Source: a virus
Taxonomy: Duplodnaviria; Caudoviricetes
Virus record (IMG/VR): IMGVR_UViG_3300042673_001351
Span: 1 to 64,000 of that record
Length of the DNA: 64,000 bases
Strand: one strand, 5' to 3'
In this document: in pieces, positions 50,953-60,653 of the stretch
Layout of the letters: every line of letters begins with the position of its first letter
How positions within the stretch are numbered: position 1 is the stretch's first letter
Notes under the pieces: model-generated
What the model was told of the DNA's origin: nothing
The model's input: only the letters and a program-made list of their open reading frames with translations
Databases searched by the model: none
Translations under genes and position numbers: made by a program

Positions 50953-51013
50953 CGCCCACAAAAGCTGTGGGGGCAAAATGTGATTTAAGACACATTTTAA
51001 AAAAACCCTGAAA
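50953..51013. repeat. Tripartite element copy A
   Basis: hairpin + GGGG-N12-TTAAG-N16-CCCTGAAA. Confidence 0.8.
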
Positions 51014-51107
51014 TTTGCGGCGTGTCGATTTGACACGATTTTTGTGATTAAGAACACATGACTTGAGCGTCTCAAAATGTGGAATTACTGGCTAGTAGGT
51101 AGAGAAT

Positions 51108-51129
51108 TGTCGGTGGCTTCCGCTATAAT
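51108..51129 (+). promoter_or_regulatory. PafBC-type promoter 3
   Basis: TGTCGG-N10-TATAAT. Confidence 0.8.
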
Positions 51130-51158
51130 TGCGGTATAACGAAAGGAAGTGGCTAACA

Positions 51159-51350
51159 ATGGCTAACTTATACACAATACAAGATTTACTAATTGGTAAA
51201 ATCTATAACTCAAAAACTCTGCGTGGAGAAATTATCTCAGCAGATAAATCAGATATTTTTTATGAAAATGCTGAAGGATATTTGGTTCAGGTTAAATCTG
51301 ATACTGGTAAATATACTTACCGAAATATAGCAGTTAAGGTTGGTGAGTAA
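51159..51350 (+). CDS. Hypothetical protein
   Basis: AACGAAAGGA RBS places the start at MANLYTIQD. Confidence 0.7.
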   Translation: MANLYTIQDLLIGKIYNSKTLRGEIISADKSDIFYENAEGYLVQVKSDTGKYTYRNIAVKVGE

Positions 51351-51473
51351 ATGGGATACATAGAAATTTTTAGATTAGATGAGCAGGGTGCTGGCTGGGT
51401 AGATTTATCTCAAGCCACCCCGCAAGAATTACTAGATTTAGAAATCGGATTATTTCAGGAAGGTGCGCTCTAG
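51351..51473 (+). CDS. Acidic microprotein (40 aa)
   Basis: MGYIEIFRLDEQGAGWVDL...; abuts the previous stop. Confidence 0.65.
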   Translation: MGYIEIFRLDEQGAGWVDLSQATPQELLDLEIGLFQEGAL

Positions 51474-51492
51474 GGCGTGTCTATCCCGAAAT

Positions 51493-51514
51493 TGTCGGTG
51501 GCTTAGGCTATAAT
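51493..51514 (+). promoter_or_regulatory. PafBC-type promoter 4
   Basis: TGTCGG-N10-TATAAT. Confidence 0.8.
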
Positions 51515-51544
51515 TACATTAACAACAACGAAAGGAAAACTAAA

Positions 51545-51676
51545 GTGGGAAATATACTAGAAATACTTGCCGTATCTTGTGATGAGTGTGGCGGTGCTGG
51601 CTTCATATTTTGGGGCGATGAAAACAATTACGATGTAGAGAGTTGCGATTGCGCTCTAGAAATATGGGGTATCTAA
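51545..51676 (+). CDS. Zinc-finger microprotein (43 aa)
   Basis: AACGAAAGGA RBS, GTG start; CDECGGAG...CDC. Confidence 0.7.
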   Translation: MGNILEILAVSCDECGGAGFIFWGDENNYDVESCDCALEIWGI

Positions 51677-51876
51677 TGTATAGACTAGATACTTACTATG
51701 ATGGCGAATTAGAATATACATTTCAATTCGCTGACGCATTACAAGCCTTTGAGGCTTTCGCAAAATGTTATGATGTTGGATTTGCTAATGAATTCGCAAC
51801 ATATAATTTATCTATGCCAAATGGCAAAATGTATACTAAAAACTTTAATCGGATTGGATTGGTGTCGCAGAAATGA
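51676..51876 (+). CDS. Hypothetical protein
   Basis: TAATG coupling; MYRLDTYYDG... Confidence 0.7.
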   Translation: MYRLDTYYDGELEYTFQFADALQAFEAFAKCYDVGFANEFATYNLSMPNGKMYTKNFNRIGLVSQK

Positions 51877-52064
51877 TGACCCGTAAAGATTATATTGCTA
51901 CTGCTGAAATTATGAAATATGTTTCAGATAAAACTCACCCTGCTTTATTTTCTAAAGTAGTTGTGGATTTTGCTTTAATGTTTGCGAAAGATAATCCTAA
52001 GTTTGACGCTAACAAATTTTATAGCGCAAGCGGTTATCGTATTCCGCAATTTAATTCTAAATAA
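51873..52064 (+). CDS. Hypothetical phage protein (MTRKDY...DNPKFD..F family)
   Basis: ATGA overlap; motif seen in small phage proteins. Confidence 0.75.
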   Translation: MMTRKDYIATAEIMKYVSDKTHPALFSKVVVDFALMFAKDNPKFDANKFYSASGYRIPQFNSK

Positions 52065-52096
52065 ACGGCGTGGCGTCTTGACAAAGGCGCCAGCTG

Positions 52097-52157
52097 CGCC
52101 CACAAACCCTGTGGGGGCGTTTTGTGATTTAAGACACATGCACAAAATCCCCTGGAT
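52097..52157. repeat. Tripartite element copy B
   Basis: hairpin + GGGG-N12-TTAAG-N16-CCCTGGAT. Confidence 0.8.
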
Positions 52158-52180
52158 TTTGTGGCGTGTCGATTAGGTAA

Positions 52181-52202
52181 TGTCGTAGGCCTCTGTTATA
52201 AT
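52181..52202 (+). promoter_or_regulatory. PafBC-type promoter 5 (variant)
   Basis: TGTCGT-N10-TATAAT. Confidence 0.65.
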
Positions 52203-52230
52203 TCTTATCCAACCAACGAAAGGTCAACTC

Positions 52231-58490: not shown

Positions 58491-58514
58491 TAAGGTCCTA
58501 GCGAAAGGAATATA

Positions 58515-58733
58515 ATGCCTGAACTATTTATAGATACTGTAGCAGAGCACATTACAGGTGCAATGCAACAGGAAATAGCAGAACAATTGTTTGAAGATTG
58601 GTCTAATAAGAATCTAGATGAAGGTGCTGAATATGCTGAATATGAATTCATGCAATATGCCTCACCTGAATTAAAGCAAGAATATAATAAGTTCTATTCT
58701 TACATTGAGGGAAATGAGTATTATCTATGTTAG
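58515..58733 (+). CDS. Acidic hypothetical protein
   Basis: AGCGAAAGGA RBS; 72 aa. Confidence 0.75.
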   Translation: MPELFIDTVAEHITGAMQQEIAEQLFEDWSNKNLDEGAEYAEYEFMQYASPELKQEYNKFYSYIEGNEYYLC

Positions 58734-58894
58734 GTTATACATATAAAGATATACAGAACTTTGGTAATAGTTTAACTGTTGCTATTGATTCCGCTTCCGA
58801 CCCTGATGTTAAGCAAGGTCTATTAACCATATGGGATTTTTTCGAGGGCCTACTAGCAGAAGGGTATATAGATGAGAACACTTACTACGGATAA
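58727..58894 (+). CDS. Hypothetical protein (55 aa)
   Basis: MLGYTYKDI..DFFEGLLAEGY; overlaps its neighbours. Confidence 0.6.
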   Translation: MLGYTYKDIQNFGNSLTVAIDSASDPDVKQGLLTIWDFFEGLLAEGYIDENTYYG

Positions 58895-59033
58895 GTTAAT
58901 AGAATATATGAATATTCATTTAATTAGTCTTAACCAGGATATGGATAAAGATTTGAATGTTGAATCTAAGATCAATATCCAAGGACAAATTATGGCTATA
59001 GAACATCTACTGGAGTATGCTAATGAGTTATAA
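58872..59033 (+). CDS. Hypothetical protein (53 aa)
   Basis: EYMNIHLISLNQD..QGQIMAIEHLL. Confidence 0.55.
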   Translation: MRTLTTDKLIEYMNIHLISLNQDMDKDLNVESKINIQGQIMAIEHLLEYANEL

Positions 59034-59280
59034 GGATACTCTATTGGAACCCCACCTACAAAAATTAGTTGACCTGGGAGAATCAGGTACTGATATCATG
59101 CATGGTCACATGAAGAATCTAATGTATGAATGTGAAACAAAACTATTAGACATATCTGAATTACAGGATATGCCTGAATATAAATATCTTTCAGGACGTA
59201 TGGACGCATTGACAGAAATATACATTATGACGTATAATTTAGCCTTCGCCATAAACGAAAGGACTGTATCTCGTGGATGA
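59023..59280 (+). CDS. Hypothetical protein
   Basis: GGAG RBS. Confidence 0.7.
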   Translation: MSYKDTLLEPHLQKLVDLGESGTDIMHGHMKNLMYECETKLLDISELQDMPEYKYLSGRMDALTEIYIMTYNLAFAINERTVSRG

Positions 59281-59659
59281 TTTGCAATATGACAGAGGCC
59301 AAAAAGTTAAAATGCAATTGGACCAAATTGTCAATACCTTAAATAGCGTTGATGTAGCCATGTCATTAATATGGGTATGGGCATGGGATTTAATTAGAGA
59401 TAAGTATCAGTCTCATGAATTTATTACTGAGGGTTCTGAGTATGTAGTTAGTACTGGAGTTACCTTAGATGTTATATGGAATAAACTTTGGGAAAGCCCG
59501 CCCTCCGATTTTACCCTGGAGTACGGGGCAGACCAAATGGACGAGGCTGTAATGGATTGGATGATTGATAACAACTTCCTTACCCTCCTAGATGATGATG
59601 ATTGGTTAAACGAGAGTTCTGACGTGGAGTCAGATGATGTACAACTTAATATGGAATGA
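59273..59659 (+). CDS. Acidic Trp-rich hypothetical protein
   Basis: AACGAAAGGA RBS; GTG start. Confidence 0.75.
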   Translation: MDDLQYDRGQKVKMQLDQIVNTLNSVDVAMSLIWVWAWDLIRDKYQSHEFITEGSEYVVSTGVTLDVIWNKLWESPPSDFTLEYGADQMDEAVMDWMIDNNFLTLLDDDDWLNESSDVESDDVQLNME

Positions 59660-59710
59660 AGGAACTAGGCTTCAAGGCGGAGCTCAGGGCAATTAGAAAG
59701 AGGATCTACA

Positions 59711-59851
59711 ATGGCAACAAAGCGTGAATATCTAAAGTCAAAAGGCATTACAGTGGGCGTCCGTGGACGTTTCTCAGGTGCCGCTAAGCAAGCTCTGTCA
59801 GAGGCAGAGAAGAACGGCGTAAAGTTTACAGCTGAGGTAAAGACTAAGTAA
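59711..59851 (+). CDS. Lsr2-like DNA-binding domain-only protein (46 aa)
   Basis: MATKREYLKSKGITVGVRGRFSG resembles the Lsr2 C-terminal REWAxxxGxxVxxRGRI; GAAAGAGG RBS. Confidence 0.65.
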   Translation: MATKREYLKSKGITVGVRGRFSGAAKQALSEAEKNGVKFTAEVKTK

Positions 59852-59945
59852 ACTAACTAACATTGGGTAGGGTCTGTACTGTCCTAACGCTATTGACCTT
59901 ACCCAACCTAGTATGATAAAATGACGGAGATTAGAAAAGGCGGAT

Positions 59946-60221
59946 ATGGCAAAAAGAATACAAGAAGAAAAGATAGCAGAAGCATTAGCAGAGGCAGTAG
60001 ATAACAATTGGTTTAATCCTACATTGTGCGCTGACCTAATTGTTAATCACATGCCGCTATATACTCAAGACCGACTAATGATTTTAATATCAGAGGTCAT
60101 AAGGCAACAAGCCTTGAGGTTTGAAACTGAGTGGGAGCATGGCTATACATCTGACGGCTTAATGCTATCAAGTCATTTGGCTGAAGTAATAGAGGCTCAT
60201 CAACGAGGTCTGGATATCTAA
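59946..60221 (+). CDS. Hypothetical protein
   Basis: 91 aa; TTGACC-N18-TAAAAT promoter upstream. Confidence 0.75.
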   Translation: MAKRIQEEKIAEALAEAVDNNWFNPTLCADLIVNHMPLYTQDRLMILISEVIRQQALRFETEWEHGYTSDGLMLSSHLAEVIEAHQRGLDI

Positions 60222-60409
60222 TGACCAAGCCTGTAGGAGCCAAGCAGCGCAAGCCTAGATCAGGTGGACGGGACAGGAATCATGCCCTTGCAGCTTTTAG
60301 AAAAGTAAAGCGGGCAGAGAAAAGAAAGAAGTCCCAATTCCAAGAGTACTATGAATCAATGTGTGGTCCAGTAACTATAACATATAAAGAAGTAAATTTA
60401 AATAAGTAA
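60221..60409 (+). CDS. Small basic hypothetical protein
   Basis: TAATG coupling; Lys/Arg-rich. Confidence 0.65.
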   Translation: MTKPVGAKQRKPRSGGRDRNHALAAFRKVKRAEKRKKSQFQEYYESMCGPVTITYKEVNLNK

Positions 60410-60414
60410 ACATC

Positions 60415-60468
60415 TGGGACATGTGATCGATTTGTACATGTATGTACATTTTGATATACATTGTCCCA
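60415..60468. terminator. Long imperfect hairpin at the end of the rightward operon
   Basis: TGGGACA...TGTACAT-GT-ATGTACA...TGTCCCA. Confidence 0.45.
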
Positions 60469-60486
60469 TTTGTTATATCTGAGTAA

Positions 60487-60531
60487 GGGCAGAATTTCTT
60501 CTTTACGACAAGCTATAAAAAATCCCTGAAA
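60487..60531. repeat. Tripartite element copy G
   Basis: GGGC-N12-TTACG-N16-CCCTGAAA. Confidence 0.8.
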
Positions 60532-60608
60532 ATCTAGGATAATCTAATATAAATGTATATTAATCTTATTAAACATATATAGAATCTATTAAAATATATA
60601 TAAAATGT

Positions 60609-60653
60609 GGGCAAATTTTCCTATTTACGAGACATGTTTCTATATCCTGGAAT
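60609..60653. repeat. Tripartite element copy H
   Basis: GGGC-N12-TTACG-N16-CCTGGAAT. Confidence 0.7.

Follow-up and report, generated by a model that had tools for sequence, protein, structure and literature searches.

What does a phage gain from a signal that is repeated nine times among its small early genes, always facing the same way, and which strand of that signal is read? The question is raised by IMG/VR record IMGVR_UViG_3300042673_001351, a linear viral contig of 82,596 bases; the window analyzed here is its first 64 kb (64,000 nucleotides). The element in question is a composite boundary signal made up of a short G+C-rich stem-loop, a fixed gap of 12 nucleotides (nt), the box TTAnG, 17 nt, and the box CCTGRAA. 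Its spacing is strict, it has a single orientation, and it is restricted to the early gene block, where it stands at the 3' ends of gene cassettes and is conserved throughout a lineage of freshwater phages. Its parts are arranged like those of a promoter coupled to a stem-loop. We tentatively favor reading it as an antisense promoter that is specific to the phage, carries a 5' stem-loop, and stands where each cassette ends, as a possibility to be weighed rather than a conclusion.

A composite element at the ends of early gene cassettes

In what follows, G000 denotes the contig under study, and G001-G004 denote four complete relatives. The preliminary description had claimed eight copies of the pattern RGGN-N12-TTAMG-N16-CCYNRRAW, and all eight matched at the claimed positions, every one on the plus strand. 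These copies and a ninth, degenerate one are arranged in the window as follows.

50969, 52113, 53284, 54668, 55916, 58374, 60487, 60609, plus strand: matches to the full pattern
50952-51016, plus strand: copy A, with stem-loop 50952-50974, TTAAG 50985-50989, and CCCTGAAA 51006-51013
52096-52160, plus strand: copy B, with stem-loop 52096-52118, TTAAG 52129-52133, and CCCCTGGAT 52149-52157
53268-53331, plus strand: copy C, with stem-loop 53270-53287, TTAAG 53300-53304, and CCCTGGAA 53321-53328
54654-54715, plus strand: copy D, with a weak stem 54654-54671, TTACG 54684-54688, and CCCCCAAAA 54704-54712
55902-55963, plus strand: copy E, with stem 55902-55919 abutting tRNA-Asp, TTACG 55932-55936, and CCCCGAAA 55953-55960
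58359-58421, plus strand: copy F, with stem-loop 58359-58377, TTACG 58390-58394, and CCCTGAAA 58411-58418
60487-60534, plus strand: copy G, in the AT-rich noncoding spacer after the last plus-strand gene, with no adjacent 5' arm
60609-60656, plus strand: copy H, hairpin-less, with TGTGGGC kept at the fixed distance
60724-60768, plus strand: copy I, in the same AT-rich spacer as G and H, degenerate with two mismatches (GGGT-N12-TTACG-N16-CGCTCAAT) and conserved in G001

By chance, 0.01 matches to the full pattern were expected, and none of 100 shuffles reached eight. The shorter pattern TTAMG-N16-CCYNRRAW returned the same eight plus one match inside a tail gene at 5609 (0.34 expected), which is a chance hit, and the rest of the 82,596-base contig contained no further exact-pattern copy. 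With two mismatches allowed, 12 matches were found versus 3.9 expected, the extras being copy I, two matches within coding sequence, and one shifted self-match. A profile search of G000 returned exactly the eight copies. The elements are confined to 50.9-60.8 kb of the contig, and copies A and B have about 45 near-identical bases in common.

The rigid spacing described at first held in relatives too, in 80 loci (1.29 Mb) taken from IMG/VR around DUF932 homologues, in which a spacing of 16 (to CCC) or 17 (to CCTG) is strongly preferred. At spacing 16, the two-box pattern matched 420 times on the gene-sense strand versus 9 times on the other, and spacings of 12-14 and 18-20 gave at most 6 matches per strand; spacings of 15 and 17 gave 116 and 293 matches, most of which are due to CCC runs. 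An exact-pattern scan of IMG/VR returned at least 163 stretches, and among the 163 matches listed, nearly all belong to this one phage lineage: 152 of them have alignments of 300 nt or more with the DUF932 set, and of the remaining 11, only 3 seem to be chance matches in unrelated sequences. From 686 instances, 480 unique 100-mers remained, and these were thinned to 287 so that any two retained copies differ at more than 20 positions in 100. The profile built from these 287 copies made 567 matches, all 567 on the gene-sense strand, and those outside the original pattern reveal the core proper.

The consensus of the 287 non-redundant copies is GCCCnCA-loop-TGnGGGS, N12, TTAnG, N17, CCTGRAA(T). 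Counting the first T of TTACG as 0, the arm GCCCnCA is followed by a loop of 3-8 nt, by T(-19)GnGGG(-14)S, and by 12 free nt. The tTTAnG box is nearly invariant at T1, A2, and G4, and at position 3 it has mostly C, sometimes A, and rarely T. After it come about 10 free nt, AAAA at +15 to +18, and (C/G/T)CCTGRAA(T)TT at +21 to +31, with purine-rich positions at +35 and +36. The sequence logo accordingly shows the conserved blocks TGnGGG, TTAnG, the A-tract, and CCTGAAATTT, with free spacers between them, and the centers of the TTAnG and CCTGRAA boxes lie 23 base pairs (bp) apart. The element is clearly a hallmark of one freshwater actinophage lineage, in which it is ancient and functional. Full-text searches of the literature, which do not reach supplements, returned no description of it.

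The spacers had initially been said to contain CRP-, WhiA-, and DnaA-like boxes, of which a DnaA-like 9-mer in copy D and a CRP-like TGTGA-N6-TCAC palindrome in copy C were recovered. In copy D, TTATCCACA, which we take to be the DnaA-box consensus, lies at 54672-54680 with an inverted near-copy at 54694-54704, and the two flank TTACG upstream of the DUF932 gene. D-type copies in relatives carry one or two TTATCCACA-type boxes around TTACG in either orientation, and A-, B-, and C-type copies carry TGTGA-N6-TCAC-like palindromes in the spacer.

The place of the copies relative to genes is as regular as their sequence, and it is best seen from the layout of the block that contains them.

49700-60409, plus strand: early block of about 45 small genes in seven cassettes

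The left edge of this block is divergent from minus-strand genes, and its right edge is convergent with another minus-strand block across the AT-rich noncoding stretch 60410-60933. Each early-block gene has the ribosome-binding site AACGAAAGGA. Each cassette opens with a putative TGTCRGTGG..TATAAT promoter followed by AACGAAAGGA, and an element comes after each cassette: copies A-F close cassettes one to six, and G, H, and I come after the last gene. Cassette 1 (from 49856) has its own TGTCAGT-type promoter and no element upstream. The layout is the same in G001 and in the more distant G003, with nine profile matches each and no element upstream of cassette 1, and in all three genomes, two to three tandem copies lie downstream of the last cassette, facing the convergent genes. 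Since these phages are related, the shared layout represents one inherited architecture and not three independent trials. Because no element precedes the first cassette and copies follow the last, a 3'-end or antisense role explains the layout better than a promoter for the next gene does; such a promoter should leave the reverse pattern at both ends of the block, and a role tied to the end of the preceding unit gives the observed one.

The promoter-like sequences that open the cassettes form a second motif family, which lies downstream of most elements and is confined to the early block (7 copies in G000 and 10 in G001).

51108, 51493, 53351, 53667, 54736, 55971, 58469, plus strand: TGTCRGTGG-N6-8-TATAAT motif, often with TGn before the -10 box

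The conserved box of this family sits at about -28 to -20, in place of the expected -35 box, and the layout recalls that of MotA-type (activator-dependent) promoters. A TATAAT-like -10 box lies between element and gene in 199 of the 287 copies. From TTACG to the ribosome-binding site and start codon, the distance is 80-140 nt, and in B- and C-type copies it is a fixed 85-89 nt.

The stem-loop and its pairing on the two strands

The hairpin that had been reported beside the copies was confirmed, as a stem-loop abuts copies A-F (six of the nine window copies), 12 nt from TTAnG; in copy C, it begins 6 nt after the stop of the upstream gene. On one strand, 220 of the 287 non-redundant copies fold at -5 kcal/mol or better. 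A stricter pairing rule left 132 of 287 with a 7-pair stem whose plus-strand 3' arm stands in fixed register with TTACG. The loop is 4 nt long in 74 of these 132 stems and otherwise 3-8 nt, and this floating length points to a folded nucleic acid and not to a dimeric operator. Furthermore, the central stem pair covaries (GC 34, CG 15, AT 11, TA 8). Beside the stem, there is no U-tract on either strand (T fraction of 0.33 in the 12 nt after it, A fraction of 0.29 in the 15 nt before it), and thus the stem-loop is not a classical intrinsic terminator. In an Rfam scan of 49000-62000, nothing but tRNA-Asp reached the gathering score. Copies of the H type are hairpin-less (25 clear cases) and carry TGTGGGC at the same distance, followed by AAATTTyCC.

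It is important to consider the strand on which this structure would form. The preliminary description held that the mismatches of the stems are G-U pairs on the minus strand only, which is partly right: in the window, copies D and E fold clearly better on the minus strand (-8.0 versus -4.6 and -7.4 versus -2.5, minus versus plus), with three G-U pairs on that strand in E and good pairing only on that strand in D. Copies A, B, C, and F fold as well or better on the plus strand. Among the lineage copies, wobbles that pair on the minus strand only (C:A or A:C as written on the plus strand) and those that pair on the plus strand only number 31 versus 7 at the central pair and 88 versus 36 over the six inner pairs, and the outermost pair shows the opposite trend (3 minus-only versus 28 plus-only). 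In 45 distinct stems with 4-nt loops, standard pairs make up 85.1% on the minus strand versus 72.1% on the plus strand, both percentages being above all 500 shuffles and all slid controls.

Other structures were considered for the rest of the element. Inverted repeats around TTACG show a modest excess (37% versus 22 ± 2.5%), which is due to the palindromic spacers of certain copy types, and the idea that TTACG lies in the loop of a second hairpin was rejected on this basis. No excess of stems around CCTGAA was seen across the copies. The sequence CCCTGAAA was also compared with half of a lambda boxB and rejected, as it has no matching 3' arm.

Which strand is read, and by what

Whichever strand is considered, rigid spacing, a free spacer, and box centers 23 bp apart agree with a promoter of the sigma type. 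On the minus strand, the element reads TTTCAGG-N17-CnTAA with the stem-loop after a further 12 nt, the complete order being AAATTTCAGG, a T-tract, about 10 nt, and CnTAA(A). As a sigma-type promoter, it would have TTTCAGG followed by the T-tract as its -35 box and CnTAA(A) as its -10 box. A polymerase guided by a phage factor would start about 6-11 nt past CnTAA and transcribe the stem-loop first, capping the 5' end of the RNA with a stem that would begin 2-7 nt from that end. From there, transcription would enter the early cassette on the left at its 3' end, in the antisense direction. With units after every cassette and three after the last, head-on collision would stop read-through, and the early genes would be silenced once the factor is made. 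Our tentative preference for this reading derives from the position at cassette 3' ends, the minus-strand pairing bias, the layout resembling that of promoters for extracytoplasmic function (ECF) sigma factors, and the fixed short distance from -10 box to stem, which would suit a 5'-terminal protective hairpin. A fuller version, in which the antisense array shuts off the whole early region, uses a specificity factor of no recognizable sigma family, yields RNAs with 5' stem-loops, and has single copies tuned by DnaA- and CRP-type boxes, is doubtful as a whole. The antisense promoters for an alternative or phage sigma factor proposed at first are partly supported: the geometry, the minus-strand lean in pairing, and the place at cassette 3' ends speak for them, and the searches for a sigma domain and for enrichment in host genomes speak against them.

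Two known kinds of promoter are instructive here. ECF sigma promoters, among them those of ECF-like sigma factors encoded by phages, have consensus sequences such as GGAAC-N16-17-CGT, in the layout GGAAC-TTT...CGT. On the minus strand, the element resembles them in its -35 block of 5-7 nt, T-tract, rigid spacer of 16-17 nt, and C-G-T-A-A -10 box; it differs in that its -35 block, TTTCAGG, has no AAC and the G of CGT can vary, and the searches gave neither a sigma gene in the phage nor a host regulon. Lambda oop and P22 sar are antisense promoters located where a gene ends, each an isolated case that relies on the host sigma-70. The likeness would lie in a promoter just past a gene stop that points back and gives an RNA beginning with a stem-loop, and the difference lies in the nine paralogous copies over the whole early region and the non-host box sequence.

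The factor that would read the element was sought in the phages and in a proxy for their host. The sigma factor that had been postulated was not found, as the Sigma70_r2 model had no match at E ≤ 1 in G000-G004. With Sigma70_r4 and r4_2, only helix-turn-helix frames of 49-54 amino acids (aa) were obtained, below the cut-off, in three relatives and in neither G000 nor G001. Scans with Pfam, PHROGs, and NCBIfam gave no other polymerase or sigma candidate, and a phage RNA polymerase was not found in the scans of the contig and its relatives. A 180-aa protein adjoining the early block had no match in a protein-atlas search, and three proteins of no known family, inspected by eye, were not sigma-like. 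Phages of Planktophila in culture carry a sigma-70-type gene (PMC10202952), in contrast to the present lineage (G000-G004), in which none was found. As the host proxy, we used the Nanopelagicaceae, chosen on habitat, low G+C, and WhiB and not on best-hit rank; a thioredoxin search returned 80 loci of mixed phyla at 36-53% identity, among which a Nanopelagicaceae chromosome was picked. The pattern TTAMG-N17-CCTGRAA had 65 matches in 54 of 151 genomes of this family, the host assignment itself being inferred, with at most three per genome; several fell within one conserved coding sequence, and a reversed-pattern control scored as high or higher. A host regulon was rejected for this family, given the lack of motif enrichment in these genomes. 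With no sigma factor found and no enrichment in the host, the reader of the element is most likely phage-encoded and of a family that standard sigma models do not recognize.

Some RNA evidence is available, since 14 lake metatranscriptome runs contain small shares of the region, four of which were examined as unstranded contigs. The end of one such contig, at 55921, lies 2 nt beyond stem E and would fit a sense 3' end as well as an antisense 5' end. Another spans copy F to 58398, 8 nt past the first T of TTACG, and sense read-through through copy F therefore occurs to some extent. No contig covered 60383-60700, a gap that carries no weight as evidence.

Several of these observations weigh against the antisense promoter, and they should be taken together. 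Neither the Sigma70_r2 search nor the wider scans provided a polymerase or sigma candidate, the genomes of the likely host family show no regulon, and the RNA contig at copy F points to some sense read-through. Whole-segment folding energy is lower on the plus strand in 194 of 287 copies, as is, or equally low, that of four of the six window hairpins (A, B, C, and F). About one-third of the 45 stems are orthologues of copy E, and many of the minus-only wobbles come from the E type and hence represent few independent events. TGnGGGC is kept in the hairpin-less copies H and I, a retention that a protein contact upstream of a plus-strand promoter would explain more easily than would a place at +5 to +11 in a transcript. 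In CGTAA, the G can be replaced (TTAAG and TTATG copies), unlike the CGT of a typical ECF -10 box. Finally, a dedicated system of nine antisense promoters has a low prior probability.

The reading that fares best after this one, although we consider it rather unlikely, is a sense-strand terminator-promoter module of the promoter-early stem-loop (PeSL) type of T4. The stem-loop would end or stabilize the upstream plus-strand transcript, TTTACG would serve as a -35-like box (on the plus strand, tTTACG agrees with TTGACA at 4 of 6 positions), and CCTGAAAT would be an unusual -10-like box. An activator would contact TGnGGGC, some 50 bp ahead of the start, and the result would be a middle-class plus-strand promoter placed in series with the TATAAT promoter that opens the following cassette. 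From the orphan copies G, H, and I, a noncoding or primer RNA would arise at an AT-rich origin, and origin-linked promoters without genes in T7 and T4 count in favor of this. All copies are in gene orientation, a plus-strand gene with a ribosome-binding site begins 80-140 nt downstream in most, and the retention of TGnGGGC without a hairpin, the four window hairpins that fold at least equally on the plus strand, and the purine enrichment at +35/+36 agree with it too. In the PeSLs of T4-like phages, the order is likewise stem-loop, -35-like box, N17, and second box, with TTTACW as the reported -35 box in the PST/T4 pair (PMC4122927). PeSL elements join a short conserved stem-loop to a two-box signal with an N17 spacer and are repeated in one orientation between small early ORFan genes of a plastic region (PMC4122927), and these traits are shared; a place beside differences in gene content, frequent for PeSL elements, may be shared as well.

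The promoter of a PeSL cassette matches the host sigma-70 consensus or pairs a Mot box with a -10 element. The present element differs in a second box, CCTGRAA, that is not a sigma-70 -10 box and is followed by a separate TATAAT promoter, in its minus-strand pairing bias, in a third block, TGnGGG, at a fixed 12 nt, in having copies after the last cassette and none before the first, and in the phylum of the host. Against a sense promoter, CCTGAA is without two bases of the sigma-A -10 box, namely A at position 2 and T at position 6, and no factor able to read it was found. A TATAAT-like -10 box already stands between element and gene in the 199 copies mentioned above, and a sigma-A promoter embedded in the element was rejected as a general feature, as just 7 of the 287 copies have one. 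No element precedes the first cassette, and a plus-strand gene to serve is missing for three copies. For the terminator half, copies D and E are nearly without a stem on the plus strand, no U-tract follows the stem, and copy A has a plus-strand terminator-like hairpin exactly at the predicted start.

An improbable third reading is that a DNA-binding protein of the phage occupies the element without initiating transcription, as an oriented roadblock or insulator that would end sense transcription at cassette ends, with the stem-loop aiding RNA release from the stalled polymerase. Such a role agrees with the single orientation relative to transcription, the restriction to intergenic DNA, the one copy after each cassette and the triple copy before the convergent block, and the conservation of TGnGGGC sequence even without a hairpin. 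The lack of a sigma factor in G000-G004 and of motif enrichment in the likely host genomes is also expected under it. A precedent is given by the stoperators of Cluster A mycobacteriophages, 13-bp single boxes that occur throughout the genome of a temperate phage and are recognized by its immunity repressor. Like them, the elements are asymmetric intergenic actinophage sites, repeated and oriented to transcription; unlike them, each extends over 45 bp in three parts, includes a stem-loop, and lies in the early block only, and neither a repressor nor an integrase came out of the Pfam and PHROGs scans. Three unlike boxes over 45 bp with promoter-like 23-bp geometry would be unusual for a simple repressor site, the elements lie within 10 kb rather than genome-wide, no candidate binding protein was identified, and the minus-strand wobble bias is left without an explanation.

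Still less probable are sites acting at the DNA level, either recombination hot spots for cassette shuffling or sites of replication priming or fork control that would fold as minus-strand single-stranded DNA near an origin at 60410-60933. G-T wobbles are tolerated in single-stranded DNA hairpins too and are biased here to one strand, three tandem copies lie in an AT-rich noncoding stretch, D-type copies have DnaA-type boxes beside TTACG, genes for DnaB, DnaG, and Pol III alpha are present in relatives, and A and B have their near-identical 45 bases. Homology with relatives often breaks beside elements, as the 845 internal homology ends with 84 related sequences peak beside A, B, C, D, and E. 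Equal peaks are found at junctions without an element (53100, 53850, 54300, 56700, 57200-57250, and 58050), and homology ends are seldom inside the element. Breakpoints are equally frequent at eight or more element-free junctions; they follow gene boundaries generally, and consequently, the recombination sites suggested at the outset as an alternative gain no specific support. The Pfam and PHROGs scans, and those of relatives, brought up neither a recombinase nor a HUH enzyme, and the enrichment of TTACG inverted repeats is only modest. Integron attC sites have core boxes RYYYAAC...GTTRRRY on an imperfect hairpin and are served by an integron integrase; this candidate was rejected, as the core boxes are absent from the copies and the scans gave no integrase.

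The phage, its other early signals, and the meaning of the element

The contig belongs to a freshwater actinobacterial phage, lytic-looking, with a G+C content of about 30-41% and an estimated completeness of 76% (CheckV). Pfam and PHROGs scans identified tailed-phage genes (portal, HK97-type head proteins, protease, and a 2126-aa tape measure) and many auxiliary genes (catalase, P450, acyl-ACP desaturase, thioredoxin, and sulfotransferases), and no integrase or repressor. Actinophage markers comprise WhiB, GP88, DUF932/TIGR03299, an Lsr2-like protein, and PASTA and DUF7455 domains. Compared with the complete 111-kb relative G001, which has direct terminal repeats, about 31 kb is missing from the contig; this part encodes Pol III alpha, DnaG, DnaB, RecA, and RuvC, all on the minus strand. 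A BLAST search of a phage collection gave no close annotated relative, only matches to the GP88 gene at about 70%.

Two proteins of the tail region (28393-30576 and 34274-35635, minus strand) start with an Mtd_N domain (major tropism determinant). Among the auxiliary genes, those unusual in a phage are the catalase (561-1829 of L001, minus strand), the cytochrome P450 (43626-45056 of the window, plus strand), and the acyl-ACP desaturase (48049-48996 of the window, minus strand). Cellular relatives of the desaturase reach at most 47% identity, and the catalase search gave no genome match. A heme auxotrophy has been reported (PMC10202952), and a phage catalase is notable given that the likely hosts have long been difficult to culture.

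Other signals accompany the elements inside the early block.

49714 (minus strand), 49960, 50925, 51019, 51474, 52067, 52163, 53291, 53335 (plus strand): nine occurrences of a third motif, GGCGTGTC(G)
55824-55898: tRNA-Asp(GTC), inside the early block, with the stem of copy E directly after it

The motif GGCGTGTC, limited to the first 3.7 kb of the block (49.7-53.4 kb) and inverted once, suggests an operator for a separate regulator. At 51474-51500, a half-element, GGGCGTGTC-TAT-CCCGAAAT, is fused directly to a TGTCGGTGG..TATAAT promoter, with a CCCGAAA box in the -35 place and no TTACG upstream. Upstream of copy F, the segment 58288-58349 holds an inverted phage ribosome-binding site (TTCCTTTCGTT) with no plausible minus-strand gene and, near it, a strong hairpin (AACCCCC...GGGGGTT); together they are possibly the remnant of an inverted cassette. 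The AT-rich spacer 60410-60933 is a candidate origin or noncoding RNA locus, containing the three tandem elements 115-122 nt apart, a long inverted repeat at 60414-60465, and the block ATTACATGTATATCTA, which is conserved in relatives.

Phages bearing the element are common in lakes, and their hosts are hard to grow. The element offers a precise, testable handle on their regulation, as it predicts exact transcript ends on one or the other strand, and it calls for a DNA-reading factor missed by standard sigma models. If the antisense reading is true, these phages would shut off their early genes systematically by convergent transcription. If the sense reading is true, actinophages would join the T4-like phages of Gram-negative bacteria as carriers of PeSL-type terminator-promoter cassettes, and the promoter would belong to a new class. 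On either reading, the motif is a good marker of the early region of this lineage in metagenomes.

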